Positions 12,286 to 38,933 of a stretch of 64,000 nucleotides of DNA are shown piece by piece. Position numbers and translations under genes: made by a program. This DNA comes from Candidatus Culexmicrobium cathedralense. Lineage in GTDB: Archaea; Thermoproteota; Methanomethylicia; Culexarchaeales; Culexmicrobiaceae. Where the stretch lies: NCBI GenBank assembly GCA_025061115.1, contig JANZKC010000001.1, positions 64,001-128,000 on the forward strand, in the 5' to 3' direction. Below the pieces are notes generated by a model that worked only from the letters and a program-made list of their open reading frames with translations, did no database searches and was not told the origin of the DNA. Every line of letters starts with the position of its first letter. Position 1 is the first letter of the stretch.

Positions 12286-12325
12286 TAGCCCTCACCTCCT
12301 CATCAGGCATACTATAAAAGGAGAT

Positions 12326-12355
12326 ATAAATTTTGTGCTATTGCACAAAATTTAT
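12326..12355. promoter_or_regulatory. Palindromic operator overlapping the BRE/TATA of the 12285 gene
   Basis: ATAAATTTTGTGC-TATT-GCACAAAATTTAT, a perfect 13-bp inverted repeat; core repeated at 38914-38933. Confidence 0.8.
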
Positions 12356-12377
12356 GTGGTCATTACAGCAATAGAAG

Positions 12378-12437
12378 TGAAGGCTGCAGCCTTCATTTTC
12401 ATTAGAACCACTCCTACGATTACGGGTAGACGTAATC
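12378..12437. repeat. Two further inverted repeats in the divergent intergenic region
   Basis: TGAAGGCTGCAGCCTTCA (perfect 18-bp palindrome, 12378-12395) and GATTACG-GGTAGA-CGTAATC (12418-12437). Confidence 0.7.
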
Positions 12438-12475
12438 AATAAATTTTGTAAACAACATGTGGTATTGGTGGTTAA

Positions 12476-13924
12476 ATGAGCTTAAAAACTTGGTCAAGGA
12501 AATATGAAGATGTTAGAGCAGCTCTAGTGGAGCAGTATTATAACCAAAGGGCAGGACTACCATACGACAAGGAGCTCATGGAGAAACTATCTAAGGATAT
12601 GGCAAAACTATGTAGAGAATTCCTAGAAAAATTCAATGAGCCAAGAAGCATGTATCTCGCATGCATATCTGAAGTAGCAAGAGATGAAAGGCTTAAAATT
12701 GAAATAGAATTTGAAGAGAAGAGAATGGAAATAATCAAAAGCGAGACATTCACGCTTAATGGCGCTCCCGTTAACTGGGGAAGTTGGCGTAAATTTAACG
12801 CTAGAGTTGATAATCCTGAGAAGAGGAAAAAGTTATTTGATGAATTCATTTCCAAGGCAAATCAATTAGCACACCTCGTCAATGAGAGAATGAGAATTTC
12901 AAGGGAAGTATATGCAAGATATGGATTAACGCCATTAGATGCATATCTTGAATTGGAAAAATTGACTTATGAAGAGCTTTACTCGATTGTTGAGAAAATA
13001 GGATTGGGTGCTAAGGAAGCATACCTGAAAGCCGCTGAGCAATATGCACCAGAAGTTCTCGGCAAAAGCAAAGTAGAGTATTACGATGACTACTATACTT
13101 GGAGAGGCAGAATCTACAGGCCTCTAAACAAATACTTTGAGCATATAGATCCAGTATCAAAAGTAATCGAACTACTTAGAGACTTGCAAGTTGATCCAAC
13201 AAAAATCAAAGTAGATGCAGAAGATAGAGAAAAGAAAAGTCCAAGTGCATTTTGCTTCTGGATAAGAGTTCCCGATGACGTTAGAGTAGTATACAGGAGA
13301 GTAGCTCCATTTACGGATTTCGGCTCAGTGTTCCACGAGTTTGGCCATGGACTACACGGCGTTTCAGCTAGGCGTGAAGATCCAGTATGGAAGAGATATG
13401 TCGTTCCAATGAGTGTAGCTGAGACGTTCAGCTACCTATTGGAATACCTACTGGAAGACGAATTCTTCCTAAAAGAAGAACTGAAACTGCCCAATGAAGC
13501 AGTTAGGGAAATTATTGATAGAAGAAGATTCATGCATCTAGTCTTCGCCACATTCTATGCAGCGAACAGCTTGATGAAATTAGAGTTCTGGAAATATGAA
13601 TACAATGCTGAAAAGGCAGCTGAAAGATATCAGGAATTAACAAGGAAGTTCTTCGTTGAAGTCCCAGGAGAGTATTGGCTGCTTCACCACGTGATGCCAA
13701 GCTATGACATATATTCTCCAAGCTACGTAGTAGCTGCCGTCAGAATGGCTGCTATAAAAAGGAAGCTTAAAGAGGAGTTTGGAGAGGCATGGTGGAGAAA
13801 CAGAAAAGCTGCTGAAATGATCAGAGAAATGGCATCAGCAAGAGGAGAATTCGACGTAAAAGCTTGGAAACTTGAACCAAAATTATACTTAGAGGAAATC
13901 AAAGAAATAAGCATTTTAAAGTAA
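12476..13924 (+). CDS. M3/M32-like (gluzincin) zinc metallopeptidase
   Basis: FHEFGHGLH (HExxH) plus downstream AETFS Glu ligand. Confidence 0.8.
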   Translation: MSLKTWSRKYEDVRAALVEQYYNQRAGLPYDKELMEKLSKDMAKLCREFLEKFNEPRSMYLACISEVARDERLKIEIEFEEKRMEIIKSETFTLNGAPVNWGSWRKFNARVDNPEKRKKLFDEFISKANQLAHLVNERMRISREVYARYGLTPLDAYLELEKLTYEELYSIVEKIGLGAKEAYLKAAEQYAPEVLGKSKVEYYDDYYTWRGRIYRPLNKYFEHIDPVSKVIELLRDLQVDPTKIKVDAEDREKKSPSAFCFWIRVPDDVRVVYRRVAPFTDFGSVFHEFGHGLHGVSARREDPVWKRYVVPMSVAETFSYLLEYLLEDEFFLKEELKLPNEAVREIIDRRRFMHLVFATFYAANSLMKLEFWKYEYNAEKAAERYQELTRKFFVEVPGEYWLLHHVMPSYDIYSPSYVVAAVRMAAIKRKLKEEFGEAWWRNRKAAEMIREMASARGEFDVKAWKLEPKLYLEEIKEISILK

Positions 13925-13939
13925 AAACATAAAATTATT

Positions 13940-15103
13940 TTATATTTTTATTATTTGAACTATAATTAAACATAAAATGAATAATAAAATTGAAATTGGA
14001 AAAATTATCCAAATACCAAATAAGTCTACGAGTAACGATGCGATTATTGGCATTACAATTCCAGAAATGCTTACAGGCATGAAGAAGGCGCTGTAGGCTG
14101 TGCCTCTAGCTTCTGGAGGGATTATAAAGGCAACGAGGGAGCTTGAAATGGGCATGGTCATAGCGTTAAACAAGCCGTAAGCCAAATAGAAAATCACAAT
14201 TAGAAATGGAGCTGGAGATAAGAAGATCATAGTTAAAGTCAATGAGATTGATATGAAAATAATTGTAAATGATCTCCTCCATCCCAATTTATCTCCTAGA
14301 AATCCCCCTAAAATTGAGCCAACTAAGCCGATTAGAGGACTTAAGCCAAAAATTATGCTTGCAGTGCCTGGATCAATACCCTTACCCATCGATAAGTACG
14401 TTGTCATGAAAGTTGAGATACTTGAACTAGCGGCAGTTCTTACTGAAATAAAAATTAACAGCGAGATAAAAGTAAATGAAAGTATACTCCTTAACGGTGT
14501 AGAGATGCTTCGCACTGCTTCACTTTCAACACTATGCTTCAAATTAAACTTTAATAGTAGAGCAGAAATTGCAACTATAAATATTGGAATTAACCAAAAT
14601 GCGAAAACAAATTTCCAACCAAGCCAATGCAAAATTAAGCCAAGAGTGATTGGACCTAATGAAACCCCCAAAGTTCCACATGCACCATGTAGTCCAAGAC
14701 CCCTTCCTCTATAATTTTCAGGTAAAACACTTGTTGTAGCACTTAAAGCAGGCGGATGGTAAAAAGTTGAAGATAAAGCAATCAGAGTGAAGCCGACAAA
14801 TAAACTCCAAATAGAAGGATATAGATATATTAGAAGCCCAGCTAAACCTTCTAAAAACAAACTTGTTGAGATAAGCTTTCTAGCATTAAATCTATCTGCT
14901 ATGAGTCCACTGGGAAGCGACATCAGAAGTTGAATGAAGCGCGGAATCGAGACAAGTAGTCCTGCTTGAAAAACTGATAAATTGAATTCATCCATGAGAA
15001 TGGGTATTAAAGCGAAGGGCGCGTTAGTATAAACGTGAATCAACGTGTGCGTTGAGCATAGAAATGCCAATTTAAACTTAAAGCTACTGCGCAATCGAAT
15101 CAC
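13940..15103 (-). CDS. MFS transporter
   Basis: GLIADRF, YHPPA, GFLGDKLG; about 12 TM segments. Confidence 0.9.
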   Translation of the reverse strand: MIRLRSSFKFKLAFLCSTHTLIHVYTNAPFALIPILMDEFNLSVFQAGLLVSIPRFIQLLMSLPSGLIADRFNARKLISTSLFLEGLAGLLIYLYPSIWSLFVGFTLIALSSTFYHPPALSATTSVLPENYRGRGLGLHGACGTLGVSLGPITLGLILHWLGWKFVFAFWLIPIFIVAISALLLKFNLKHSVESEAVRSISTPLRSILSFTFISLLIFISVRTAASSSISTFMTTYLSMGKGIDPGTASIIFGLSPLIGLVGSILGGFLGDKLGWRRSFTIIFISISLTLTMIFLSPAPFLIVIFYLAYGLFNAMTMPISSSLVAFIIPPEARGTAYSAFFMPVSISGIVMPIIASLLVDLFGIWIIFPISILLFILCLIIVQIIKI

Positions 15104-15226
15104 CTTCTCAACCCAAGTATTTCATTAAATATACAGCGATTGCTTTAAATCATTTACTATTCCAACTTTAAACATTAACATCTTCAACTTAAACTAAGCA
15201 ATTAATCTTAATAATTAAACGAATAT

Positions 15227-15625
15227 TCAATTCTTTGCTGAATTTTGAACGCATCTCTCCTTTAATGTTCCTATTGAATGTGTATTTTCAGATTTTAGGT
15301 AGAGGATGCATGGTTGAAGGGAATACTCAATATAAGGTAGGCGTGCAAGAAATGCAATTATAATTGCACCTGCACCTGCCCAATCTGATGGTTTTAAATC
15401 TTTTTTATAATTAAGAGAACCCCTCCTTAGCAGGGCGTTCCAAAACGGTTTGAAGCGCTCCTTCTTCAGCACTCTGCGCTTTCCAGTTCGCTCAGAATAA
15501 ACAATTATTCTGTCATCTTTAACATCCTCGATTTTAACTGTGACGCCTAATCCTAAAGTTGAAATTGAACTCAACTTTTTAGCAATTTGCAAAATATCAC
15601 GCCAAACATACTCGAAACTGTCCAT
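15227..15625 (-). CDS. Hypothetical protein
   Basis: 132-aa ORF with GGAGG RBS; no family recognised. Confidence 0.65.
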   Translation of the reverse strand: MDSFEYVWRDILQIAKKLSSISTLGLGVTVKIEDVKDDRIIVYSERTGKRRVLKKERFKPFWNALLRRGSLNYKKDLKPSDWAGAGAIIIAFLARLPYIEYSLQPCILYLKSENTHSIGTLKERCVQNSAKN

Positions 15626-15862
15626 GGAAACCTTTCCTCCGCACTAGAATATATACTTGACATAAAGGATATTAAATATTTTTACAATCTATGAATTCAA
15701 TCTTCATAAATGATTATAATCTTAATAATACATCATCCAAATAAGTGAAATAATTTAATTGACAGTTTAACCTTAATACGATTAAGTTTATTTAAAAATT
15801 AGTATAATTGTAATTTTTACTTGATTACAATAACATTAATAACTATTTATGAGAGAATCTAG

Positions 15863-16831
15863 TTAGAAGTATTTCCATAAAGTTAATGGAGTCATCTTCC
15901 CATTCGCAGTTGTTGGAATTAAATGCTTCACGCGTATTCTCCTCAGAGCTGAAGTTAATGGTTCAGCATCTAAGGCCAAAGTTGTTATTATTGCAGCAAG
16001 GCCACCCCACCTACTCCATCTTCTAATCCACTCTCTTTCAGCATCACGCTCAGAAACTCCATAAACTTCGCATATGATTTTCTTTAACCATCTATCGACA
16101 GGAGCCAATTCATATTTCTTAGCTGAAAGAACGAGAGCTAGCCTTGCTGTATATGGGCCAACGCCCTTAATCTTAACGAAATCTTCTTCGCTATATTTAG
16201 CATAGTAGCTTAAATCGCTATTTCGCATCTTTTCAGCAATTCTAATAATAGTTTCAGCACGATATCCCAGTTTACAAGCTTTCAAAGTTTCGTAGCTTGT
16301 TTCCAAAATTTTATTTGGGGATGGAGGTATAAGCGTTGGACCCCAATCGTTAACATGAATCTTCATGCCAAGCTTTCTGTAAAGAGAAGCGAGCATGGTC
16401 CATCCTTGCTTGAAACTTGCATTCTGCTGACAAACGCCAATAAGAAGCCCAAGCCATGGCGAAACCCTCCTAACTCTAAAACCTCGCAGATGAACGAGAG
16501 ATGCTGATAGAAGCTTATCTTTTTGCCAGATTTTATAGAATTCACTTAAATCCTCATTGACACCAAGAATGTCTTCAATTAATTCGAAGTATTCTGAATT
16601 TATGGTCACATTGGATTTGGAATATATTGTTGCCTTAAACTTTCTAGGAGCAGCCTCCTCTATTAATGACACTATCGGCGCATCATAATCTAAAATGAGC
16701 AGCAATTTTGAGCCATTAAAATACCATGAGAAATTATATGCTGAAGCAGTTAAATAAAAGCTATAATCTTTAATTGAAGATTCGATCATTCGCGTTGAAA
16801 TGCTTGTTAATCTCAATTCACCCACCAACAA
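15863..16831 (-). CDS. HhH-GPD DNA glycosylase (AlkA/OGG1-like)
   Basis: QQNAS, KLGYRA, IKGVGPYTA HhH motif, APVDRW catalytic Asp. Confidence 0.85.
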   Translation of the reverse strand: MLVGELRLTSISTRMIESSIKDYSFYLTASAYNFSWYFNGSKLLLILDYDAPIVSLIEEAAPRKFKATIYSKSNVTINSEYFELIEDILGVNEDLSEFYKIWQKDKLLSASLVHLRGFRVRRVSPWLGLLIGVCQQNASFKQGWTMLASLYRKLGMKIHVNDWGPTLIPPSPNKILETSYETLKACKLGYRAETIIRIAEKMRNSDLSYYAKYSEEDFVKIKGVGPYTARLALVLSAKKYELAPVDRWLKKIICEVYGVSERDAEREWIRRWSRWGGLAAIITTLALDAEPLTSALRRIRVKHLIPTTANGKMTPLTLWKYF

Positions 16832-17104
16832 TTATCAAGTAGAATAATCCTTGAATTATGTTTCTACAAGCTAACTTAATTTAAAAACGATGAAAGAGAA
16901 TTATTAGGAGAGTTTAAGAAAAGGTTCATTGATCTAAATATTGACGATCATTAAATTAGGGCCCATTATGCTTAAGCATCAGTGAAATGTATTAATTGCT
17001 TTGAATTGCGCATTCTTTTTTAGATTGTTAGTATTCTCCTTATATGGTGCCCATCAAACATCGAGACTACTTTTAAACTAAAACTCAATCTTAGGTGATT
17101 AGCT

Positions 17105-17908
17105 TTGTTGGATGCGACAGCAAGGTTGATGTGGAGAAGAGTTAAGCGAGCAGTTGAACTAGCGGATGTAGTTCTTGAAGTTGTCGATGCACGTGATCCA
17201 TTAGGGACTAGGTGTAGAGAGGCTGAAAGACTGGTTAGGTTGATGGGTAAGAAGCTTATAATAGTAATCAATAAAGCCGACTTGGTTCCAAAGGAAATTC
17301 TTGAAGAATGGAAGAGGATTTTTCAAAAAGAGTATCCAACAGTTTACTTAAGTGCTAAGCATAGGCTTGGAACTAGAAAGCTTTGGATTGCAATTAAGAA
17401 AAATGCGCCAAAATTTCCAGTTAAGGTTGCTGTCGTGGGTTATCCTAAAGTTGGCAAATCCACGGTGATCAACGTTATTAAAGGGCGAAGTTCAGCTGAA
17501 ACTTCACCTAGACCTGGAGCGACTAGAGCTGAGAGGCTCGTTGCTGCAACAACTTGGCTTAAGCTTGTTGACAGCCCTGGAGTGATTCCCATTAGAGAAA
17601 ATGAAGTAAATTTAGCTTTAAAATGCATAGTCCCACCAGAAGAACTCAAAGACCCAGTAATACCTGCCATGGAGCTCATTAAAAGGGCTTTAGAGAAGAG
17701 GCCTGAAGCACTTCATGAAAAATACGGCTTTATAGTTGATGATCCATATGTGTTTCTAATTAAGCTCGCTAGGCGGCGAGGGCTCCTATCTAAAGGTGGC
17801 AAGCTCATCATAGAAGAAGCTGCAAAAATAGTAATAAGAGATTGGCAGGCGGGAGAACTTGTATTCTATTATACTCCACAGGATTATTGCTTTAAAAAGG
17901 AGGATTGA
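17105..17908 (+). CDS. Circularly permuted ribosome-biogenesis GTPase (YlqF/RbgA/Nog2 family)
   Basis: DARDP, NKAD (G4) before GYPKVGKST (G1), DSPG (G3). Confidence 0.9.
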   Translation: MLDATARLMWRRVKRAVELADVVLEVVDARDPLGTRCREAERLVRLMGKKLIIVINKADLVPKEILEEWKRIFQKEYPTVYLSAKHRLGTRKLWIAIKKNAPKFPVKVAVVGYPKVGKSTVINVIKGRSSAETSPRPGATRAERLVAATTWLKLVDSPGVIPIRENEVNLALKCIVPPEELKDPVIPAMELIKRALEKRPEALHEKYGFIVDDPYVFLIKLARRRGLLSKGGKLIIEEAAKIVIRDWQAGELVFYYTPQDYCFKKED

Positions 17909-17989
17909 ATTGCATTATTTAATAGAATTTAATCTTTCATAATCCACTTAAACTTCTTTGATCCACAAAAATCATTATTGGCTTTTAAT

Positions 17990-18027
17990 TTTACATTTGA
18001 ATAATGTAAATTTATATAATGTAAATT
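17990..18027. promoter_or_regulatory. Inverted and direct repeats around the TATA box of the ferredoxin gene
   Basis: TTTACATT-N5-AATGTAAA (17990-18010); ATAATGTAAATT twice (18001, 18016); TTTATATA at 18011-18018. Confidence 0.45.
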
Positions 18028-18066
18028 CGCAAAATTTTTACAGTTCTATGATAAGTTTCTTATAAG

Positions 18067-18330
18067 GTGTTAATCGTGACGAAAAAAAGCAAGAAAAATT
18101 TTGAGGTTGTCGTTATCGCAGACAGATGTAAAGGTTGCGGCATATGCATTGGCATTTGCCCGGTTGGCGTCTTAGAGTTTAGTGCTCAATTCAATAGACG
18201 CGGATATCACTATTCAGAAGCCAAATATCCTGAAAAATGCATTGGATGTAAAAATTGTGAATTACACTGTCCAGACTTTGCCATATTTGTTAAGCCTTCT
18301 CATAAGCCCAAGTTCACTTTAATTCAATAA
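18067..18330 (+). CDS. 2[4Fe-4S] ferredoxin (2-oxoacid oxidoreductase delta-like)
   Basis: CKGCGICIGICP and CIGCKNCELHCPDFAI. Confidence 0.9.
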   Translation: MLIVTKKSKKNFEVVVIADRCKGCGICIGICPVGVLEFSAQFNRRGYHYSEAKYPEKCIGCKNCELHCPDFAIFVKPSHKPKFTLIQ

Positions 18331-18737
18331 TTTGTTGGGTTTTCAATTGGTTTAAAGTAGTATCTAGGCCAATGCGGCCATCCTTCACCTTCAGCCTCTT
18401 CGAACTCAACTTTCACTTTTAAGCCAACTTTCAGCTTGTTTAGCTCTACATCCTTAATCATTCCCGGCAGCTTAACTCCGTCTTCCAATTCAACGATACC
18501 AACGGCATATGGTGCAAGGGACGCGAATTGCTGAGGGGCAACGTGAATTATGGTGAAAGTTTTAACCTCTCCTTTCCTCTTCAATTCAACCCACATAAAT
18601 TTCCTCGAACCACAGATTGGGCATGTCGGCTTAGGTGGCACTAGAATTTTCCCGCACTTGTTGCACTTTGCACCCATAAACTTTCCTTCACTACAAAACT
18701 GGTAGAAGCTTTCTATGGTAAATGGCTTCTCTTCCAC
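18324..18737 (-). CDS. DUF35 Zn-ribbon/OB-fold protein (thiolase partner)
   Basis: CNKCG...PP...CPICG, PYAVGIVEL. Confidence 0.9.
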   Translation of the reverse strand: MEEKPFTIESFYQFCSEGKFMGAKCNKCGKILVPPKPTCPICGSRKFMWVELKRKGEVKTFTIIHVAPQQFASLAPYAVGIVELEDGVKLPGMIKDVELNKLKVGLKVKVEFEEAEGEGWPHWPRYYFKPIENPTNY

Positions 18738-18738
18738 T

Positions 18739-19917
18739 TTAATCCCCCCTCACGTAAATGTGGACAACAGATGTGGCTCCGGACCCCCCTAAATTATGAG
18801 TTAAACCTATTTCTGCATTTTTAACCTGTCTTCTACCCGCTTCTCCAGTTAATTGAAGATATATTTCGTATGCTTGAGCAGCACCAGTAGCTCCAACAGG
18901 ATGACCCTTAGCCTTTAAACCTCCACTCGTATTAACCGGAACATCACCGTCCAGGAAGGTTACTCCTTCCTCAATTAACCTTCCTCCCTCGCCAGGCCTG
19001 CAAAAACCTAGGTCCTCATACTCAATTATTTCTGCAATTGTAAAGCAGTCATGCACTTCAGCTACATCAACATCCTTAGGCTCAACTTTAGCCATCTTAT
19101 ATGCTCTCTCAGCAGCAATTCTAGTAGACTTCATCGTAGTCAAGTCTTCCCTCTCATACAACCCAATAGTATCGTGGCCTTGGCCTGAACCAATAATGTA
19201 AACAGGAGTGTCGGTGTATTTTCTAGCTATTTCAGGTTTGGTTAGTATTAGGCATGAAGCGCCATCTGAAATCAATGAGCAGTCGTAAAGCTTAAGAGGC
19301 CAAGCTATAATCCGTGAAGAAAGCACTTTTTCAACAGTTACCTCCTTATGCATGTGAGCCTTTGGATTTAGAAGAGCATTTCTGTGGTTTTTAACTGCAA
19401 CTAAAGCCATTTGCTCCTCCGTAGTTCCATATTTATGCATGTGAGCAACAGCCATCAAGGCAAATAGACCTGGAAACGTTAAACCATGCCACTGCTCAAA
19501 CGGAAAGTCTGCGGCCATCGCTAGTATGTCCGTAACTTCAGGAGTGCTTCTATGGGTCATCTTTTCAACGCCACCGATGAGAACAACATCATAAAAGCCT
19601 GAAGCTATGGCCATTACGCCTAGGCGAAGAGCAGTGCCTGAAGATGCACATGCATTTTCAACCCTAATTCCTTCAGCTAATAGTAGATTGATCCACTCCA
19701 ACATTATCGGTGCATTGTGCTCTTGGTGTTCGAAGGAGCCGCTCATTTGACCAATGTATGCTACTTTAATTTCCTTAGGGTCAAGATTGGGGCATCGATC
19801 CAAAGCTTCTTGAAAAGCCTGAGCGAAAAGCTCCCTAGCATATTTACCATCAATTTTACCGAACTTCGATAAACCTGCGGAAACAATGGCAGCCAGAGGC
19901 TCTCTCATGCTCACCAC
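18739..19917 (-). CDS. Thiolase (archaeal acetyl-CoA acetyltransferase/SCP2-thiolase type)
   Basis: ENACASS, EVHDCF, GHPVGATG, HNLGG; coupled to DUF35. Confidence 0.92.
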   Translation of the reverse strand: MVSMREPLAAIVSAGLSKFGKIDGKYARELFAQAFQEALDRCPNLDPKEIKVAYIGQMSGSFEHQEHNAPIMLEWINLLLAEGIRVENACASSGTALRLGVMAIASGFYDVVLIGGVEKMTHRSTPEVTDILAMAADFPFEQWHGLTFPGLFALMAVAHMHKYGTTEEQMALVAVKNHRNALLNPKAHMHKEVTVEKVLSSRIIAWPLKLYDCSLISDGASCLILTKPEIARKYTDTPVYIIGSGQGHDTIGLYEREDLTTMKSTRIAAERAYKMAKVEPKDVDVAEVHDCFTIAEIIEYEDLGFCRPGEGGRLIEEGVTFLDGDVPVNTSGGLKAKGHPVGATGAAQAYEIYLQLTGEAGRRQVKNAEIGLTHNLGGSGATSVVHIYVRGD

Positions 19918-20074
19918 CGCATTGCTGTAGCTAATAATAAATATTTTAGTTAATTAATTTGGTTTACGACTAAAGCAAAGCAAAAACGTTTTAAGTCCAA
20001 AATGATTGGGCGAAACACATTCACGTGAAATGATGATCATGTTATATTTTTAAGCAAGTGAAAGTTCACTATAA

Positions 20075-21007: not shown

Positions 21008-21558
21008 AACTTGGATTGTAAGCATATTGTTTTTCAATACTGCCATAGTGAGATTCAAGCTGGAAATAGGGAGTTAAAAGCAAGCGGGTTAGGTTAAGAT
21101 ATGAGGAAGGGTTTTAGAGCATACCTTGAAAATCCTTGAAATGCTTAGAATACCGTACTTCGAGGTAATTCTGATGAACTAACATGCATTTCATGCAAGA
21201 GAAACATGCATAGAGTAGCTGAAAAATAGCTTTAAAATTCAGGGCTGAAGCAATAGTTGCAGTTGAAGATGCAGGAGAGTAGGCAAACCAAACAATCTGG
21301 AACTAGGAAGTTTATAGCTTCAGCAATATCCGCAATTCCAGTTCTGCGCCCAATTCTAACTTCGATAAACCTAAAAATGATAAGTTAGCACGTAAAAATA
21401 AACATATGAAATTTCAGCTAGAAATGTAGGTTGCCGCCAAGCATATTCTAGGAAAACCGCAACGAAAACTTCACTTAAAGAGGTTTTGGAAGCTGAAGCT
21501 AAAATAAATGTGGATCACCTAGTATATTATGCAGTTGAAAATGTAAAGGTGATTCCCA

Positions 21559-22383: not shown

Positions 22384-22385
22384 TT

Positions 22386-25807: not shown

Positions 25808-25871
25808 CTAAGATAGGTCAATTAGCTCAAGTTAAAATTAATTTCAACGTTTATACGCCTAATTATACTCA

Positions 25872-29674: not shown

Positions 29675-29764
29675 GCACATTCAGGACCTATGCCAGTAAA
29701 ATTTAAATTTAAGAAGTTATTGTTTATGCTGGCAGCTTCAACGCATTCACCCATTCGCTGTTAA

Positions 29765-30979: not shown

Positions 30980-31015
30980 ATAATATTATGCTAAAATAAG
31001 TAAAATTTATTTAAC

Positions 31016-31705: not shown

Positions 31706-31905
31706 ATTAAGTTATACATACATCGCTCAAAAACATTTCACTTAAATACGGTTAGCACAACGTCCGCTCAGACCACAACAACAATTAATTCAAGGTACAA
31801 CCGTGAATTCTAAGATAAGTAAACCTTAATTTAAAATGAGATAATTACAATGAGAAGCAAAATGCAGCGAAGCTAATATTTATCCAAAGGATGCTAAAAT
31901 GAATT

Positions 31906-32982
31906 GTGCTATACATAATACACACGACAGGCAAGTGCAATTTGAACTGCAAATATTGTGGGGGAAGCTTTCCGCCAGAAATCGTTCCTTGGAAAGTTCA
32001 TTATTCCATCAAAGATCTAAGAAAATTTATTGAAGGAGATAATGAAGTAATAATAGCGTTTTATGGCGGCGAACCGCTAATCAACTCAAAATTTATAATG
32101 CAAGTAATGGATGAAATCCCTCATGCTAAATTCGTAATTCAAACCAATGGCACGTTAATCTCGAAGCTCGATGAAGAATACTGGCGAAAATTCAAAGCCA
32201 TACTTCTATCAATTGATGGGAGAAAGGAAGTAAATGATTACTATAGGGGGGCTAAAACTTATCAAAAAGTCATTAAAGCTGCAAGATGGCTGAAGTCCAT
32301 AGGATTTAATGGAGATTTAGTTGCTAGAATGACAGTGTCCGAAGCAAGCGACATCTACAAAGAAGTAACTCACCTTCTCTCCCTAAAACTATTCGACCAT
32401 ATTCACTGGCAATTAGATGTTGTGTGGAGTAACAGATGGAAAAACTTTGATGAATGGTGTAGGCACTCATATAAGCCTGGAATAAATAGATTGGCAAAAT
32501 TATGGGTCAAGGAAGCCAAAAAAGGCAAAATTTTAGGTTTAGTTCCATTTCTAGGGATTTTGAAAGCAATGATTTTTGCTGGAAAGCTCGAATCTCCACC
32601 ATGCGGAGCAGGCACTTCCGCAATAGCCATTTCAACCGATGGAAGAATACTCGCATGCCCCATAGCAGTTGACGTTAAATGGGCTGAACTCGGAAATATA
32701 TGGAACTGCAAATGGATGGATGTCATAAATAAGGTTAGAATTGAGGAGCCATGCACTTCATGCGCATACTTCAAATATTGTGGAGGAAGATGCCTTTACG
32801 CCTACTTTGAAAAGCTTTGGGGCGAGGAAGGATTTAGGAAAATTTGCAATCTCACCATTCACACAATAAAAGAACTACTTAAAATAAAAGATGAATTGTT
32901 AAAATTAATAGATGAGAAAGTTGTTTCTACTGAAAGCATCATCTATCCAAAATTCAACAATACAACCGAAATAATACCCTAA
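31906..32982 (+). CDS. Radical SAM/SPASM protein (AF0577/TIGR04084-like)
   Basis: CNLNCKYC, YGGEPL, QTNG, SPASM C..G...CP / CxxCxxxxxCGGRC, C-terminal TEIIP. Confidence 0.88.
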   Translation: MLYIIHTTGKCNLNCKYCGGSFPPEIVPWKVHYSIKDLRKFIEGDNEVIIAFYGGEPLINSKFIMQVMDEIPHAKFVIQTNGTLISKLDEEYWRKFKAILLSIDGRKEVNDYYRGAKTYQKVIKAARWLKSIGFNGDLVARMTVSEASDIYKEVTHLLSLKLFDHIHWQLDVVWSNRWKNFDEWCRHSYKPGINRLAKLWVKEAKKGKILGLVPFLGILKAMIFAGKLESPPCGAGTSAIAISTDGRILACPIAVDVKWAELGNIWNCKWMDVINKVRIEEPCTSCAYFKYCGGRCLYAYFEKLWGEEGFRKICNLTIHTIKELLKIKDELLKLIDEKVVSTESIIYPKFNNTTEIIP

Positions 32983-32986
32983 ACCG

Positions 32987-33247
32987 CTACTTCTTCACAC
33001 TTTCAACAACCATCATTGTAAGAGTAGACCTAACTTTTGGCAAGCGCCTTATTCTCCAAGAGATTATTTCTTTAAGCTTATCCATATCTTCAGCTCGAAT
33101 CTTAGTAATGATATCGTAAACGCCATACACTATGTACGCTTCTTCAACTCCTTCAATATTCATCAACTCGTCCAGGAGCTCACCTTCAGTTCCAGTTTCA
33201 GCATTAATTAAAACATATGCTAGCGCCACCACAAACCCCTCTCCCAA
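32987..33247 (-). CDS. Stand-alone Lrp/AsnC ligand-binding (RAM) domain
   Basis: AYVLIN...VYGVYDII...IRRLPKVRSTLT. Confidence 0.9.
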   Translation of the reverse strand: MGEGFVVALAYVLINAETGTEGELLDELMNIEGVEEAYIVYGVYDIITKIRAEDMDKLKEIISWRIRRLPKVRSTLTMMVVESVKK

Positions 33248-33334
33248 CTACCTAAAGCTAAATTAATTCTGCATTTAAGGATTTTGCTAAACTATGACAT
33301 TAAATTTTAAAGGTACAATTCAATTTTACAATTT

Positions 33335-33390
33335 GGCGATGAAGAGCCGCTAGTGGGCCGAATTAAATGTGGAGCGCGTCCTTTACTGAG
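33335..33390 (+). ncRNA. C/D box guide sRNA #1
   Basis: C GCGATGA (33336-42), guide AGAGCCGCTAGTGGG, D' CCGA, C' ATGTGGA, guide GCGCGTCCTTTA, D CTGA (33386-89); GC-rich island; TTTTAAAG about 25 nt upstream. Confidence 0.75.
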
Positions 33391-33393
33391 CGC

Positions 33394-33449
33394 GGAATGA
33401 TGGACGGTCTCCCTTACTGAAAAGATGATGATTGTGGACCTCACTGACC
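33394..33449 (+). ncRNA. C/D box guide sRNA #2
   Basis: GG, C ATGATGG, guide ACGGTCTCCCTTA, D' CTGA (33417-20), C' ATGATGA (33425-31), guide TTGTGGACCTCA, D CTGA (33444-47), CC. Confidence 0.85.
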
Positions 33450-33526
33450 GAGAATCCTTTTCCAACTTCCAACTGCTTTAGTTTTGCAAATTCAGCTAGC
33501 ATTTGCGCAGGCACACTCGTAAGGCC

Positions 33527-34020
33527 TCAGATGAACTTGGACATCATTATGAAATCCAATTTCATCCAGTGCTTTCTTAAGTAGCACTCCGGCACGAAAC
33601 CCATTTTTAGGTAAAATGATATTGTAGGTATGGCTATTGGAAAAGTATAAGCTATTATTTTGTGACATCCCTGCTTTTCGAGTACTCTATAATTGTTTCA
33701 AGAATCTTTCTACCAATGCCTTCCCCCTGCCATTCTGGGTCTACTGCTATCCATGAAATATCTGAAATTCCATATGTAACTTTGCCTAATGCAAGGCCCA
33801 CTACTTCATCCTCAACTTCAGCTACAAAGGCGTACTTATCTTTATCATCAATGAACTTCCTCAAAATGGCTGGCTTGTACAGCTTTAATTTCTCTTTCAA
33901 GTATTTACGCGGATAAATCGTATGATCGTACTTTTCCCATAAGTCAATTCTTGCTTTAATTGAAATTTTTGAACAAGCGTCTAAATCATTATAATTCATT
34001 TGCCTTACAATTAGATTCAA
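33527..34020 (-). pseudogene. GNAT acetyltransferase interrupted by a 1-nt frameshift (or sequencing error)
   Basis: AVDPEWQGEGIG motif A; after the GGG run (33669-71) a second frame continues GCHKIIAYTFP..TISFYLKMGFVPEC... to TGA at 33527. Confidence 0.8.
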
Positions 34021-34165
34021 ACATTCACCTACGATATGGAAAGTAAGCTTATTTCAAAAAGCTTTTCATGAAATTTTAGAAGCTAATTTTCAAAACTGCT
34101 ATTTTTAAAGTGCATTTTAAAATGCGAAGTTATTTGGAAATTTACTGTTTTAAGCTATGCATAGC

Positions 34166-34636
34166 TTAAAGTTTGATGAGCTTCCAACGTTCAATAGCTC
34201 TACCATCTGGTAGAAATTTTGGGTCGCCAACCATTTTCGCTTTTAGTCCAAACTGCTTTAATGCCGCAAACATGAGTGCGGTAGAAATGTGAGCTGGAAC
34301 TCGACCTTGCTTTACAAGTCTTTTCGCTCCAGGCGTAATTATTGGATTAAGCATTGTGTACTCGACTTCATTTTCAGACACTTTTCTAACATCTATATTT
34401 TCAACATAACCTACCTTTTTGAGCCAACTTGCCAATTTCCTTAATGCTTCGAAGGGATCTTTAGCTGTTGACGCGCCAATGCTATCCTTAATTTCATTGT
34501 AGACTATTTCTCCAGCTCTCCAAACTATTTCCCAAGTCTTTTCACCGAGCAAATCATATGCCGCATGGTATATTGCATAGATTTCTAGATCGAAGAATTC
34601 GGGGTCCACGCAAATCTTATTTTCAACTTTCTTCAT
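34166..34636 (-). CDS. Hypothetical protein, possibly V4R/H-NOX-like fold
   Basis: 156 aa with GGTGA RBS; helix-rich N-terminal half, beta-rich C-terminal half. Confidence 0.7.
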   Translation of the reverse strand: MKKVENKICVDPEFFDLEIYAIYHAAYDLLGEKTWEIVWRAGEIVYNEIKDSIGASTAKDPFEALRKLASWLKKVGYVENIDVRKVSENEVEYTMLNPIITPGAKRLVKQGRVPAHISTALMFAALKQFGLKAKMVGDPKFLPDGRAIERWKLIKL

Positions 34637-34721
34637 CGATAATCACCAATTCACCATATGAATGCATTAGATTAATAAGTTATATCACTCCTTAGAATCA
34701 TTTAAAGGTAAGCCATTTAAA

Positions 34722-34764
34722 ATTACATGTTTGCACTTAAGTTTAAGTACCCCGAACATGTAAT
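34722..34764. promoter_or_regulatory. Long imperfect palindrome over the ppa promoter region
   Basis: ATTACATGTT...AACATGTAAT (10-bp arms) enclosing ACTTAA-GT-TTAAGT. Confidence 0.55.
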
Positions 34765-34796
34765 GGAAGAAGAGTGTAGGTAAATGGTGCCAGGAA

Positions 34797-35327
34797 ATGA
34801 GTAGAATACCAGCCGGCCCGAATCCCCCAAACGAGCTTTATGTAATAGTTGAAATTCCAAAGGGGTCCAAAGTTAAGTATGAATTAAAGTTTGAATTGAG
34901 CATATTATGTGTAGATAGAATATTATTTACTGCAATGGCTTACCCATACAACTATGGAATTATTCCCTGCACCCTCATGCCCGACGGAGAACCGCTGGAC
35001 GCCCTTATAATTACAAATGAAGAATTGCTTCCCGGATCTCTAGTTAAAGTTAGACCCATTGGCATACTTGAAATGGAAGATGAAAAGGGCGTTGACCACA
35101 AATTAATAACAGTACCATCAAGCGAAATTGATCCAACTACTGAAAATATCAATGATGTTGGCGATCTATCTGTAGCCACGCTAAATCAAATTAGGCACTT
35201 CTTTGAACATTACAAGGATCTCGAACCTGGGAAATGGTCTAAAGTTAAACGCTTCTTAGGGATTGATGAGGCAAAGAAAATGATTATTGAGGCTATAACT
35301 AGGTTCAAGGAGCATCATAACAAATAG
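34797..35327 (+). CDS. ppa: Inorganic pyrophosphatase (family I)
   Basis: EIPKGS.VKYE, YPYNYG, DGEPLD, DEKGVDHK, HFFEHYKDLE. Confidence 0.93.
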   Translation: MSRIPAGPNPPNELYVIVEIPKGSKVKYELKFELSILCVDRILFTAMAYPYNYGIIPCTLMPDGEPLDALIITNEELLPGSLVKVRPIGILEMEDEKGVDHKLITVPSSEIDPTTENINDVGDLSVATLNQIRHFFEHYKDLEPGKWSKVKRFLGIDEAKKMIIEAITRFKEHHNK

Positions 35328-35355
35328 GAAATTAGTTTAAGCGAATGATGCTGGG

Positions 35356-35622
35356 GTGGCTGTATTGAGAATAAAAGTCAGATTCCTATCATATTTGATG
35401 GAAATTTTGGGCATTAAAGAACAAGAAATTGAGGCTCCAGATGGAATAAATCTTGGAGAACTAGTTGAAATAATAAAGGGAAAGTGGCCTCAACTACGCA
35501 AATTGGACATTGAAAGCGAAGGCCCAATAATAGTGCTTCTAAATGGAGCAACTGCAAAACTTGCAACAAAAATCAAAGAGGGAGATGAAATATCCATTTT
35601 GCCGCCCGCAACCGGAGGTTAG
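35356..35622 (+). CDS. MoaD/ThiS/SAMP ubiquitin-like protein
   Basis: Beta-grasp pattern, C-terminal LPPATGG. Confidence 0.9.
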   Translation: MAVLRIKVRFLSYLMEILGIKEQEIEAPDGINLGELVEIIKGKWPQLRKLDIESEGPIIVLLNGATAKLATKIKEGDEISILPPATGG

Positions 35623-35623
35623 G

Positions 35624-36274
35624 TTAGCCTAACATTAATAATTCAATAAGCAAATATAATCCAAATATGATGAAGGATGCTGATGATAAAAGCTTAATCC
35701 ACTTAAACCTTAAAGCTCGAATGAGCTTAGCTCCAATCGCTACGCTTATGCTCATCACCAACAATGCGGATAATAAAACCCCAATAAAAGCGTGAAATGG
35801 AGAAGTACTTTCCAATGAAATTGCCAAGACAGCTAAATTCGTTTTATCAGCCAACTCCATAGAGGATACTAGTATGAATGTAGTTAAGAAAATGGAGCTA
35901 TTATCACTCTTAAGTTGCAATTCGTCATCTTCAAAGCCGCCCCTTAATGAAAGTATTCCAAACGCGATGAAAAGCACAGCGGCGCACATTTTAGCTAAGA
36001 AAGAGGAAATATGGATGTTCGCAAAATATCCTAGGGCAAAGCATATGACATTAACTGCTAGAAAGCCGGTAATGCTACCAATTAAAACGGGGATTGGCTT
36101 AAATCTTGATGAAAGCATGATGGTTGCAATTTGGGTTTTATCACCCAATTCAGCCAATGTAACTAATGTGAATGAAGCTATGATGGATGTTAGGTCGATG
36201 TTCATGGCCCAACTTCCACCTACATCATTCGCTAAATAATTGCATTGATCCATTTTAATATTATTGCCATTCAA
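35624..36274 (-). CDS. TMEM165/GDT1 (UPF0016) Mn/Ca transporter (start probably ATG 36205)
   Basis: ELGDKTQ and ELADKT motifs. Confidence 0.9.
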   Translation of the reverse strand: MNGNNIKMDQCNYLANDVGGSWAMNIDLTSIIASFTLVTLAELGDKTQIATIMLSSRFKPIPVLIGSITGFLAVNVICFALGYFANIHISSFLAKMCAAVLFIAFGILSLRGGFEDDELQLKSDNSSIFLTTFILVSSMELADKTNLAVLAISLESTSPFHAFIGVLLSALLVMSISVAIGAKLIRALRFKWIKLLSSASFIIFGLYLLIELLMLG

Positions 36275-36284
36275 TGTTAATTAG

Positions 36285-37169
36285 CTACATCTGCTCTATG
36301 TAATTAGCTATCTTCATTAGAGCTTTAGCGCCATGGGAAGTTGGAGCTAAGTTTACTAGTGGAATGCCTTTAACGGATGCTTCAACGAATTTATCATCAT
36401 ATGGAACTTCAAATACGCCTTCAAAATCATTACTCAAAGCTACTTCAATTACTTCATCCTTAACGGAGCTTGGAATATCTGCCCTATTTAATATTAAGCT
36501 TCTATGGAGATTTAGCTTATTGAGTGCATTGCTAATCAACCTCAAAGTGTAGGCGCCAAGCGGAGTTGGCTCAGATACGACAAATGCCCATTCCACTCGA
36601 ATTAATGCTTGAATTACGGTATTTTGTATTCCAGGTGAAGTATCAACTATGATGAATTTATATTGATCTAAATCTTCTCTGCTGAAAACTGCGTCCATGA
36701 GAAGCTTTGCTACAATTGGAGATCTAGCCTCGCCAATCTTCAATTGAGCTCCAATTAAGGTTAGATTTCCGCTTTCAGCTTCGAAAAGCTCACCAATAAC
36801 TTTTCCTGCATCAGATATTGCATTAACTGGACACATAATAATGCAGGCTTTGCAGCCTGAACACCTTTCTATAAGAGGCATTGGAGGACTTCCTGGCTTC
36901 ATAATTAGTGCATGCTCCGGACAATTCTTAACACACTCACCACATGCTACGCACTTTAACTCATCAATATGCGGTGCAAATATCTTCAATTCTCCCACAA
37001 TTGAAGGCTTCATTTGAAGTAGCATAGCATCATTTGGGTTATCCACATCAGCATCCACTAAAAGTACTTTACACTTCCTACTTAGAAGAGTAGCTAAATT
37101 CACTGCAATAGTGGATTTCCCAGTGCCGCCCTTCCCACCGGTTACTGCAATCACCTTAGGCTTGCTCAT
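36285..37169 (-). CDS. MinD-superfamily P-loop ATPase with inserted 2[4Fe-4S] ferredoxin
   Basis: GGKGGTGKS, DADVDNPN, CVACGEC..CP, CSGCKAC...CP, EPTP. Confidence 0.92.
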   Translation of the reverse strand: MSKPKVIAVTGGKGGTGKSTIAVNLATLLSRKCKVLLVDADVDNPNDAMLLQMKPSIVGELKIFAPHIDELKCVACGECVKNCPEHALIMKPGSPPMPLIERCSGCKACIIMCPVNAISDAGKVIGELFEAESGNLTLIGAQLKIGEARSPIVAKLLMDAVFSREDLDQYKFIIVDTSPGIQNTVIQALIRVEWAFVVSEPTPLGAYTLRLISNALNKLNLHRSLILNRADIPSSVKDEVIEVALSNDFEGVFEVPYDDKFVEASVKGIPLVNLAPTSHGAKALMKIANYIEQM

Positions 37170-38071
37170 AAATTTAAAACCTCCAATAAGCTTTCAAATG
37201 CTTTAGTTAAGGCTTTAGATGCCCGCGAATCCGGATTAAATTCCAATACCGGCTTTCTTTGGGCAACCGACCTTAGAACTTCAAAGTCAAAGGGCACTTT
37301 GCCCAGCACATCGACTTCATAAGTGGATTTAAGCTCCTTCTCAATTTCAGTAATATAATTGCTGATATCAAATTTGTTAATTATAATTCCCACAGGCACT
37401 TTGAAGTGATGAGCAACTTCAATAACTCTCAATGCCCCCTTGAAGGATTGCGGAGTTGGCTCAACAATTACAATCGCATAGCTCGCACCTAGAAGAGCTG
37501 CAATCACTGGACATCCGATTCCTGGAGCCCCATCAGTTAAAATTAAATCTGCATTTATGCTTTTAGCCAACTCTCCTGCTTCATTCTTAACTACACCAAC
37601 AAGCAGCCCCGAGTTATGCTCTCCAACTTCAAGCTGAGCAGTTGCCATTGGAAAGCCATGAATAGTTTCGCCCGTAATTAGCTCTCCAGTCCTCACCATA
37701 ACTAGGTTAATCGCATTTACTGGACAAACTAATTTACATACTCCACAACCTTCGCACATAAAATGCGCAACTTCCAGCATCCCTGATTCATTTCGAGTTA
37801 TAGCGCCGTAAGCGCAGTGCTCCAAGCATTTCCCACACCCAATGCATTTCAAGTAGTCGATAACCGCCTTTCTAGATATTTTCACTTCAAATTTTTTAGT
37901 TATGTTTTTAAGTGGAATCAGCAACTTCAAACTGGGAGTATCAACATCAGCGTCTGAAGCTACTATTTTATATCCATTTGAATGTAGGAAGAAAGCTAAG
38001 CTAGCAGATATTGTTGTTTTGCCTACTCCGCCCTTACCACTTACAATTACAACCTCTCGTCTAGAATTCAA
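37166..38071 (-). CDS. MinD-superfamily P-loop ATPase with inserted 2[4Fe-4S] ferredoxin (paralog)
   Basis: SGKGGVGKT, CIGCGKC..HC, CEGCGVC...CP, DGAPGIGCPV. Confidence 0.92.
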   Translation of the reverse strand: MNSRREVVIVSGKGGVGKTTISASLAFFLHSNGYKIVASDADVDTPSLKLLIPLKNITKKFEVKISRKAVIDYLKCIGCGKCLEHCAYGAITRNESGMLEVAHFMCEGCGVCKLVCPVNAINLVMVRTGELITGETIHGFPMATAQLEVGEHNSGLLVGVVKNEAGELAKSINADLILTDGAPGIGCPVIAALLGASYAIVIVEPTPQSFKGALRVIEVAHHFKVPVGIIINKFDISNYITEIEKELKSTYEVDVLGKVPFDFEVLRSVAQRKPVLEFNPDSRASKALTKAFESLLEVLNL

Positions 38072-38874
38072 GATACGTACCTCAGTGCATCTTTAACTTT
38101 AATGTTTGGAGGTACAGTTACCATTCTAATCCCAAGGCTTTGAAGTACACTTGAAGCATTTGGACCAAACCTTCCAGCTATCACGACTTGAACTCCTTTA
38201 TTAGCTAAATACTGAGAAACTGCTATTCCAACTCCATGCGGCTGATAAATGTATTGATTAGGCTCTACAGCAACGTTCTTAACCTGTCCTTCCTCCAGGT
38301 CAATTATCGTAAATGCTGGAGCTCTACCAAATTGCATTGAAACGAAGTCATCAAGCCCACCTCGCCCAATACATGCAACTGCAACTCTTAGCATACCCGA
38401 CTTGACCCTAGGTCTTTGAGCAGTAGTTCGGGCAGTAGGAAACAGCGGCATCATTGGAGGAGGAAGTTGATAGGGCATAAATGGATATCCCCTCCTTCTA
38501 CCTCTACCATAAGCCATTCCGCTACATGAAGAAATTTGAGGATTATATGGAGTTAATTTCTGCTGCTTAACTTCATCAATAACTTCTCCAAGAGTCTTAG
38601 AGTTCGTTAAATATATTGATATACCTTTAGATTGGAATGCCGATGCAGCTCTAACACCAATACCCTTAACAATCACCGCATCTACACTTAGCTCATTCAA
38701 CAAGTCAATAACACCGCACCTATCTCCATGCTCAAGCATCACATTCTCAATTTTAAATGTCACATGACCATCACTGGTTAAAGCCACAATAGCATGAAAT
38801 GAAGCCCTACCAAAGTGATCTGACACTGGAGAGTCGAGTCCACAGTCATCGTCGAGGGGCACCAGAAACCTCAT
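38068..38874 (-). CDS. Tandem NifB/NifX-family (IssA/SipA-like) domain protein with Arg/Gly/aromatic/Pro-rich linker
   Basis: Two domains (HFGRA...GIGVRA; FGRAP...GRFGPNA) joined by CSGMAYGRGRRRGYPFMPYQLPPPMMP; start re-assigned to ATG 38874 (GGTGA RBS, TATA 38913-38906). Confidence 0.88.
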   Translation of the reverse strand: MRFLVPLDDDCGLDSPVSDHFGRASFHAIVALTSDGHVTFKIENVMLEHGDRCGVIDLLNELSVDAVIVKGIGVRAASAFQSKGISIYLTNSKTLGEVIDEVKQQKLTPYNPQISSCSGMAYGRGRRRGYPFMPYQLPPPMMPLFPTARTTAQRPRVKSGMLRVAVACIGRGGLDDFVSMQFGRAPAFTIIDLEEGQVKNVAVEPNQYIYQPHGVGIAVSQYLANKGVQVVIAGRFGPNASSVLQSLGIRMVTVPPNIKVKDALRYVS

Positions 38875-38907
38875 GAAATCACCAAAACATACCGAAATAG
38901 CTGATCT

Positions 38908-38933
38908 TATAAATTTTGTGCCATAGCACAAAA
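38908..38933. promoter_or_regulatory. Second copy of the palindromic operator, adjoining the TATA box
   Basis: TATAAA-TTTTGTGC-CATA-GCACAAAA; first 14 nt identical to 12325-12338. Confidence 0.8.

Follow-up and report, generated by a model that had tools for sequence, protein, structure and literature searches.

Which factor joins two iron-sulfur (Fe-S) loci that lie far apart in the genome of Candidatus Culexmicrobium cathedralense, an archaeon of the Culexmicrobiaceae, and is it the small protein encoded beside one of them? The question is raised by a stretch of 64,000 nucleotides from contig JANZKC010000001.1 (assembly GCA_025061115.1, positions 64,001 to 128,000 of the forward strand), called the window here, in which one 20-bp palindrome, TTTGTGC-N4-GCACAAA, stands before both loci. 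The small protein belongs to DUF134 (UPF0251/COG1342), a family of widespread small helix-turn-helix (HTH) proteins of anaerobes. A preliminary description of the window proposed that the palindrome is the DUF134 binding site and that a gene cluster, split in this genome, is co-regulated through it. The rarity of the motif, its conservation and its association with DUF134 all speak for this proposal, and the palindrome is likely to serve as operator for the single DUF134 factor, which would co-regulate these operons; that DUF134 physically binds the palindrome is the step we infer.

Copy 1 of the palindrome (12331-12350) reads TTTTGTGC-TATT-GCACAAAA, in full TTTTGTGCTATTGCACAAAA, and copy 2 (38914-38933) reads TTTTGTGC-CATA-GCACAAAA, in full TTTTGTGCCATAGCACAAAA. 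Both lie exactly where the preliminary description had placed them and contain the identical 14-mer TATAAATTTTGTGC that it had pointed out. On the minus strand, TTTATATC (12330-12323) directly follows copy 1 and TTTATAAG (38913-38906) directly follows copy 2, so that each copy abuts a TATA box in the position of the TFB recognition element (BRE), again as first described. The last five operator bases before the TATA box, CAAAA, fit the BRE consensus VRAAA (PMC5937170). At copy 1, the operator core is 48 nt from the ATG of the first gene, which encodes a tryptophan-, glycine- and arginine-rich (W/G/R) peptide, WGRa, and the Shine-Dalgarno sequence GGAGGTGA lies in between; at copy 2, the end of the palindrome is 9 nt from the DUF134 stop codon (38943-38945). 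A scan of the window for the palindrome with up to two mismatches returned these two copies only, both with 0 mismatches, and the same loose scan of window shuffles gave a mean of 0.44 matches, with at least two in 7 of 100 shuffles. As an observation in its own right, copy 1 and its flanks form a perfect 30-bp palindrome, ATAAATTTTGTGC...GCACAAAATTTAT (12323-12358), which yields a second TATA-like element facing the divergent M3-peptidase gene at 12476-13924, 128 nt off.

The motif is rare in the genome as a whole (G000; 1,982,293 bp, 41% G+C, 25 contigs). Exactly three perfect copies occur, about 0.01 being expected by chance from our own base-composition arithmetic, and the mismatch spectrum runs 3, 0, 5 and 53 for zero, one, two and three mismatches. 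The third copy lies outside the window on the plus strand (C1:193250), where the palindrome is followed by TTTATAT and then by an operon, WGRb-PY70-DUF5320, that encodes a WGRa paralogue, a P/Y-rich 70-aa open reading frame (ORF) and a DUF5320 protein. All three perfect copies are fused to a TATA box in the same geometry before operons of the type found in the bacterial orp system (ORP-type), so that the concern that the motif might be frequent at random positions is answered by its rarity and its single promoter setting. Because likeness between the copies ends after about 26 bp, that is, palindrome plus TATA box, they are not copies of a longer repeat.

A 22-nt position weight matrix (PWM), trained on 47 sites in loci L063-L142, none of them from this genome, gave five matches above 20 bits in the genome (32.8, 32.2, 27.7, 24.6 and 22.4 bits), followed by a sixth at 14.8; the maxima in five simulated genomes were 15.3-19.9. 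The fourth and fifth matches are two of the two-mismatch sites. One lies directly 5' of a gene for a single-domain NifX-like protein on contig C4, a paralogue that matches MrpORP/NifB C-terminal models, and the other precedes feoA-feoA-feoB on contig C2 by 46 bp. Five promoters of the genome share a 14-bp core, TGTGC-N4-GCACA, flanked by T/A-rich sequence: WGRa-Mrp, NifX2-MinDFd-MinDFd-GDT1, WGRb-PY70-DUF5320, the single NifX-like gene and feoA-feoA-feoB, whose copy is degraded. With these five, feoAAB among them, the regulon exceeds what the preliminary description saw.

The sites are also found in relatives, within a set of 61 related genomes whose kinship makes them non-independent and whose completeness varies. 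In G001, of the same genus, all three perfect sites are kept at orthologous places. Genomes G002-G005 carry a perfect site before the WGRb-PY70-DUF5320 operon, G002-G004 carry a site with one or two mismatches between DUF134 and NifX2, and at the Mrp promoter, G005 has a good site and G003 and G004 have degenerate ones. The idea that the motif should stand upstream of orthologous loci thus holds from G001 to G005. The site at the single NifX gene persists in G001 and G002, and the feoA site is well formed in G001, G002 and G003 (TTTGTGCAAT..CACATA, 7 nt, TATA box). The composite pattern GTG-N6-CACAAAAYTTATA has 18 matches in 10 of the 61 genomes and none when reversed; further composite matches precede single NifX-like genes (L050, L051), and one clade has the operator variant TGTGA-N4-TCACA. 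Separately, in a relative of another family, the composite (L060, G042:C57, site 1501-1522) stands before a DtxR-type regulator gene (Fe_dep_repress, 1.9e-06), an arrangement suggestive of a regulatory cascade in which a classical metal sensor takes part. A second palindrome in genus g10, GTGAT-N2-ATCAC, was rejected as a regulatory site: GTGATCGATCAC occurs once per genome (G013, G016 and G035; L171, L173 and L174, near 1501), lies inside a conserved 311-aa ORF and encodes V-I-D-H, and it is therefore a coding look-alike, a coincidence.

If the palindrome belongs to DUF134, it should keep company with DUF134 genes. This genome has one such gene, and DUF134 is present in 41 of the 61 related genomes. 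Across 29 DUF134 loci of relatives, the density of GTG-N6-CAC is 1.12/kb up to about 340 bp from DUF134 and 0.21/kb elsewhere, and 21 of the 29 loci have such a site; most control patterns near DUF134 stay at 0-0.3/kb, the exception being GTG-N8-CAC (0.72/kb), which reads the same TGTGTG sites. The association extends to 80 public DUF134 loci from Desulfurococcales, Thermofilaceae, Bathyarchaeia, Hadarchaeota, Methanomassiliicoccales, Archaeoglobales, Methanomethylicota, Promethearchaeota and others, together with one bacterium. Here 31 copies of TGTG-N6-CACA fall within 400 bp of DUF134 (0.49/kb, in 28 loci) and 16 in the remaining 311 kb (0.05/kb), an approximately tenfold difference in density; the reversed control occurs 0 times near DUF134 and 4 times far from it. 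The matrix built from relatives' sites matches near DUF134 in 38 of the 80 loci, and on reversed sequence it gives no match. The single bacterial locus (L128) has no comparable palindrome.

The genes next to these sites are of a consistent kind. At 35 of the 47 sites in the 80 loci, a DUF134 or ORP-type gene starts at most 300 bp away and points away from the site, and the targets include the W/G/R peptide, which is the commonest (27 sites), DUF134 itself (14), NifX (9) and DUF5320 (7). At least one ORP-type gene flanks DUF134 in 59 of the 80 loci, in agreement with the co-clustering of DUF134 with NifX, MinD-ferredoxin, Mrp and DUF5320 genes that the preliminary description had given as established. 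The W/G/R family is found in 14 of the 61 related genomes, all 14 with DUF134, and in none of the 20 genomes that lack DUF134, and every W/G/R promoter inspected carries a site, that of G014 a half-site only. Co-occurrence of motif and DUF134 is therefore seen in the relatives' loci, in the public loci and in the distribution of the W/G/R peptide. The most telling case is genus g10 (e.g., G016): DUF134 has unrelated genes on both sides there, and the palindrome stands in the promoter of DUF134 itself, directly after the TATA box and 5 nt ahead of the ATG; elsewhere in the g10 genome, a NifX-like gene is preceded by a second site. The order TATA box, site, ATG at the promoter of DUF134 itself recurs in L023, L033, L035, L037, L039 and L040, with variants in L025, L028, L031, L036 and L041.

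The DUF134 protein, judged by profile matches and a structural model, is able to read DNA through its HTH. It matches PF02001 with 74.7 bits (E 9.4e-21, profile positions 5-90 of 98), passing the gathering cut-off of 27 bits; it scores 85.9 bits against NCBIfam PRK04217, below the equivalog cut-off of 115, and also matches Sigma70_r4 (1.4e-07). Its layout is a W/R-rich N-terminal arm with GPGRPPKPR, a short beta region and a C-terminal three-helix HTH, and a G-R-x-P-K-P stretch is invariant across the DUF134 alignment. No solved structure of DUF134 was found; the AlphaFold2 (AF2) model has a predicted local distance difference test (pLDDT) score of 85.8, with HTH helices at 52-63, 68-75 and 79-99. 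In this model, the HTH superposes on sigma region 4 and on DeoR with a root-mean-square deviation (rmsd) of 0.5-0.7 Å over about 45 residues, and on the HTH of EnfR with a Z score of 7.0 and an rmsd of 1.5 Å over 52 residues. Among solved structures, the best sequence match is the DNA-binding domain of Bacillus subtilis DeoR (E 4.1e-05 over the HTH). No fusion of DUF134 to a sensor domain was found among longer proteins, a single-sequence query that is weak evidence, and long DUF134 ORFs in the loci were rejected as fusions, being upstream over-extensions. A side observation concerns the N-terminal 20 residues, which hold two to four cysteines in some lineages (C-x2-C-x3-C in g10) and tryptophans here (WRWRWRRGG); DUF134 of this genome is without these cysteines, and since tryptophans replace them in this family, they are not a conserved ligand set.

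These features would lead one to think that a DUF134 dimer with two-fold symmetry binds the palindrome. Set 10 bp apart, its TGTG and CACA cores would lie on one face of the helix and be read by the sigma-70 region-4-like HTH, and the basic GRPPKPR arm may assist in the A/T-rich centre or in the flanks. In the three perfect copies, it is the arm nearer the promoter (GCACAAAA) that would double as the BRE before TTTATA, and bound DUF134 would exclude TFB and thereby repress. The site of the single NifX gene, placed after the TATA box and before the start codon, would let bound DUF134 block RNA polymerase.

The sign of regulation depends on how these promoter geometries are read. Among 37 sites at W/G/R genes, 17 have a palindrome that stops 2-31 nt short of the start codon, and in 12 of these a TATA-like hexamer lies directly upstream; in 16 of the 37, all three perfect sites of this genome included, TTTATA directly follows the palindrome and the start codon is 42-68 nt away. 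The order at the single NifX gene is TATA box and then site in G000, G001 and G002. Archaeal repressors such as TrmBL1 are described as blocking polymerase recruitment from between TATA box and start (PMC4706686), and orthologous genes with their site in this repressing position argue for repression here too. A strong core promoter whose near-consensus BRE is covered by the regulator likewise argues for repression, by exclusion of TFB.

The alternative that survives best is a dual role, in which DUF134 would activate through TFB/TBP at sites upstream of the TATA box, namely the three perfect sites and that of feoA, and repress from between TATA box and start, as at the single NifX gene and, in other lineages, at its own promoter. 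Both geometries do occur in one genome family, the site preceding the TATA box at WGRa, NifX2 and WGRb and following it at the single NifX gene. Precedents for activation from upstream have been reported: a TrmBL1 site upstream of the TATA box activated two of three templates, part of a position-dependent duality (PMC4706686), and TFB-RF1 activates from a palindrome just upstream of the BRE at targets with weak BREs (PMC5937170). The TrmBL1 result leaves repression at the perfect sites insecure and weighs against the simple repressor account. However, the operator here overlaps the BRE instead of lying upstream of it, and both BRE (CAAAA) and TATA box (TTTATAT/TTTATAA) are near consensus, unlike the weak BREs described for TFB-RF1 targets. 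In addition, the orthologous W/G/R genes of other lineages have the site between TATA box and start in 17 of 37 cases, so that a dual role would require a change of sign for the same target. The dual role is kept as a rival and is rather unlikely as an explanation of the whole, and repression at all sites is somewhat preferred to it. The preliminary description had held that overlap with the BRE fits either repression or activation; both still stand, and the comparative geometry favours repression. The two promoter geometries make opposite predictions for competition with TFB. A search of sequencing runs for this stretch gave ten DNA data sets that contain it and no RNA data set.

The identity of the factor is a separate matter, and several observations weigh against DUF134. 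The promoter of this genome's own DUF134 gene (39270-39423) carries no operator by sequence inspection and matrix scan, so that the signature of autoregulation comes from other lineages only. In 42 of the 80 DUF134 loci, there is no matrix match within 400 bp of the gene; G052, which is 77% complete, has the composite motif and no DUF134 match; and the feoA site of this genome has two mismatches in one arm. A further line of evidence fell away on inspection. Recognition helices with SRG go with C at operator base 4 in 71 of 90 half-sites, and those with SRN or SRS go with A in 23 of 24, but a tree of 105 DUF134 proteins shows a single change at the position after SR, giving one independent pair. 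The covariation is therefore one event and not a test; it was rejected as proof of direct reading and is consistent with such reading without being evidence for it.

The first three of these observations might suggest that a different transcription factor, encoded elsewhere, binds the palindrome and that DUF134 is merely a member of the cluster. However, the site stands in the core promoter of DUF134 itself even where DUF134 lies apart from ORP-type genes, the roughly tenfold enrichment near DUF134 holds across phyla, and DUF134 has a DNA-reading HTH. No second regulator gene recurs in the loci; tblastn of the flanks gave only ORP-type genes and a cupin. Another factor is thus improbable, and DUF134 is retained as the likely owner of the operator.

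It is very unlikely that the palindrome acts as an RNA hairpin, whether as a terminator or 3' end or as a 5' leader. Copies 2 and 3 do follow the stop codons of DUF134 and ThiW, respectively, at a distance of 9 nt and in the same orientation, and folding energies of -11 to -15 kcal/mol are predicted if the copies are transcribed; yet any perfect palindrome folds, and the energy therefore decides nothing. The intergenic region of copy 1 is divergent and has no co-directional gene upstream, the half-site sequence is kept across phyla beyond what pairing requires, and the register is locked to the TATA box (18 of 18 composite matches against 0 controls). Many sites, moreover, lie between the TATA box and a start codon 2-31 nt off, and a terminator scan, which was judged non-discriminating, gave none. 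That the copies are chance matches or remnants of a short repeat or mobile element, for which the shuffles with two or more loose matches might speak, is refuted by the exactness of both window copies and the gap in the genome's mismatch spectrum, by simulated-genome maxima far below the observed scores, by the end of likeness at about 26 bp, by orthologous conservation from genera to phyla and by the enrichment near DUF134, and deserves practically no credence.

The regulon holds Mrp, NifX-like and MinD-ferredoxin proteins (of Fe-S carrier or scaffold type), GDT1, Feo and W/G/R-DUF5320 proteins, with a DtxR-type regulator in one relative. This content of Fe-S, iron-uptake and antiporter genes suggests iron or Fe-S status as the signal to which DUF134 would respond. 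The closest known counterpart is the orp system of Desulfovibrio vulgaris Hildenborough, in which two operons share one palindrome under a sigma-54 activator, OrpR, with an Fe-S PAS sensor (PMC8359166, PMC6345978). Both systems have two MinD-like Fe-S ATPases (Orp3/Orp4), a Di-Nase/NifX protein (Orp8) and an Mrp/NBP35 protein (Orp9/MrpORP), and both are described as separate transcription units with one shared palindrome and a dedicated regulator encoded in the cluster. In this genome, the paralogous MinD-like ATPases and the Di-Nase (Nitro_FeMo-Co) proteins are present, the latter as NifX2 and the contig C4 paralogue, and the NifX domains match the Di-Nase part of the MrpORP model. A two-domain MrpORP was not found: by Pfam, the Mrp protein has the NUBPL/ParA domain alone and is unfused to Di-Nase, unlike its bacterial counterpart.

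The control also differs. OrpR is described as a sigma-54 enhancer-binding activator acting at GGGCGYRTTTTGCGCCC, whereas the candidate here is a 108-aa DUF134 HTH protein and the element is TGTGC-N4-GCACA on BRE and TATA box. No divergent sigma-54/OrpR operons were found; the promoters are of the archaeal TATA/BRE type, and the operons are dispersed, with loci up to 100 kb apart or on other contigs. W/G/R and DUF5320 peptides, GDT1 and Feo are additions. We know of no archaea with sigma-54. The archaeal system resembles the orp regulon in its workings but falls outside the OrpR system.

Palindromic operators placed on archaeal core promoters are a kind of element already known. TrmBL1/TGM of Pyrococcus furiosus resembles the present case in that an archaeal regulator uses a palindrome whose position relative to BRE and TATA box varies and sets the output (PMC4706686), but it belongs to the TrmB family, has another motif, serves sugar metabolism and sensing, and has its reported activating sites upstream of the BRE instead of overlapping it. 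TFB-RF1 (PF1088, P. furiosus) likewise has a short palindrome, TCTG-N5-CAGA, beside BRE and TATA box, and its regulon is very small, its own operon being among the targets (PMC5937170); it is described as an activator with weak BREs and a site upstream of the BRE, whereas here the BRE-like CAAAA lies inside the operator. EnfR/Tfx (TON_1525, PDB 8hno) is archaeal and dimeric, with a sigma-70 region-4-like HTH, and its pseudo-palindrome covers the core promoter (-44 to +3), with N-terminal loops that aid recognition (PMC10570040). However, the EnfR HTH is N-terminal and followed by an acidic C-terminal domain, and its reported target is the codh cluster; the HTH of DUF134 is C-terminal, behind the basic arm and small beta region, and no sequence-family relation between the two was detected. 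B. subtilis DeoR (SorC family; PDB 7bhy/8r7y) shares the HTH match and was solved on a palindromic operator, but the match covers about 40 HTH residues only, and DeoR's large sugar-phosphate-binding domain is absent from DUF134.

The novelty lies in assigning an operator and regulon to an orphan, widespread family and in tying ORP-type genes to iron uptake. In the open-access literature, with subscription journals and supplements outside this scope, nothing was found on the function or binding site of DUF134/UPF0251/COG1342/PF02001. ORP proteins are described as poorly understood even in Desulfovibrio (PMC8359166), and the ORP complex of bacteria has been proposed to act in cell division (PMC6345978). 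The combination of ORP-type genes with ferrous-iron uptake and a DtxR-type link points to iron or Fe-S homeostasis, not cell division, as the archaeal context. The family gains a concrete predicted operator, TGTGC-N4-GCACA, with TGTGA-N4-TCACA as the form of one clade. A PF02001 match is present in Methanocaldococcus jannaschii and Methanosarcina acetivorans, which served as control genomes; both are genetically tractable, and the prediction is therefore directly testable.

The W/G/R peptide deserves attention as the commonest target. The family has a strongly conserved core of 35 residues, GPWPGRGPFS[YH]LPPWxRPGWxFGRGxCWW, with one invariant Cys; the tail is aromatic-rich (Y/W/P), and some lineages have a DUF5320 coiled coil in its place. 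Fusion of core and coiled coil is seen in 6 of 25 members (Archaeoglobales, some Bathyarchaeia and others); this genome encodes the two as separate genes of one operon, in which the DUF5320 protein matches PF17253 over its C-terminal coiled coil only. WGRa and WGRb themselves did not match DUF5320 in Pfam or NCBIfam, and an atlas lead towards DUF5320 is weak (0.77). Homology of the W/R-rich arm of DUF134 with the W/G/R peptides was considered and rejected (hhalign probability 1.9%), the likeness being compositional only. An RG motif has been listed in a DUF134 and a DUF5320 protein of Methanosarcina mazei (PMC7565180). On the function of DUF5320/PF17253, the open-access literature, within the same limits as above, yielded nothing.

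A bolder reading would make DUF134 an ancient pan-archaeal master regulator of the ORP-type iron/Fe-S module, with the W/G/R-DUF5320 peptide as its missing sensor and one operator, placed on the BRE or the transcription start, giving opposite or graded outputs in response to one signal. As a small co-regulator binding a cluster or a metal, the W/G/R peptide would then report Fe-S status back to DUF134, a protein without a ligand domain. We regard this extended role as doubtful.

The Pfam matches agree with the gene identities given at first for both loci: DUF134, tandem NifX, two ferredoxin-MinD ATPases, GDT1 (that is, TMEM165) and Mrp. The Mrp/NBP35-type ATPase, likely an Fe-S cluster carrier, is encoded 58 nt downstream of WGRa. 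NifX2 probably starts at the ATG at 38877, as the TTG at 38931 in the list of ORFs falls within the operator.

Table. Coordinates of the features, in the window unless a contig or locus is named.
Feature	Position	Strand	Basis
Operator copy 1	12331-12350	no strand	PWM 32.2 bits; kept at orthologous place in G001 (L008)
TATA box of W/G/R-peptide-Mrp operon, TTTATATC	12323-12330	-	Sequence
WGRa, W/G/R-rich peptide, 89 aa	12016-12285	-	Family core conserved in archaea; without Pfam/NCBIfam match
Mrp/NBP35-type P-loop ATPase, 276 aa	11127-11957	-	Pfam PF10609 (NUBPL/ParA type), 4.5e-93
Operator copy 2	38914-38933	no strand	PWM 27.7 bits; kept in G001 (L015), and in G002-G004 with 1-2 changes
TATA box of NifX2 operon, TTTATAAG	38906-38913	-	Sequence; composite pattern GTG-N6-CACAAAAYTTATA
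NifX2, tandem NifX-like protein, 2 x Nitro_FeMo-Co	38068-38877	-	Pfam, 7.5e-37
MinD/CbiA-type ATPase with 2x[4Fe-4S] ferredoxin insert, Orp3/Orp4-like	37166-38071	-	Pfam CbiA/ParA + Fer4; overlaps NifX2 gene by 4 nt
Second MinD/CbiA-ferredoxin ATPase	36285-37169	-	Pfam CbiA/ParA + Fer4; 4-nt overlap
GDT1/TMEM165-family divalent cation/proton antiporter, last gene of the operon	35624-36274	-	Pfam PF01169, 2e-32
DUF134 regulator gene, 108 aa from ATG 39269	38943-39269 (ORF to 39299)	-	Pfam
Probable TATA box of the DUF134 gene, ATTTATATT	39302-39310	-	Sequence; without PWM match
WGRb	C1:193309-193566 (L001:5310-5567)	+	Paralogue of WGRa; without Pfam/NCBIfam match
DUF5320 protein of the WGRb operon	L001:5811-6173		PF17253, 28.3 bits, 4.1e-06 (cut-off 27)
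feoA-feoA-feoB	C2:74709-75017 (L143:2210-2518)		

Two further genes near the DUF134 locus may be mentioned. A tubulin/FtsZ-family protein of 350 aa (PF00091, 4.5e-13) is encoded on the plus strand at 41078-42130, 1.8 kb from the DUF134 locus, and a matrix scan found no operator before it. On the minus strand, an M20-family peptidase at 39793-40862 is read as two ORFs (205 and 151 aa) that overlap by 4 nt and each cover one half of the Peptidase_M20 and M20_dimer profiles; the split is a frameshift, a sequencing error or a truly split gene.

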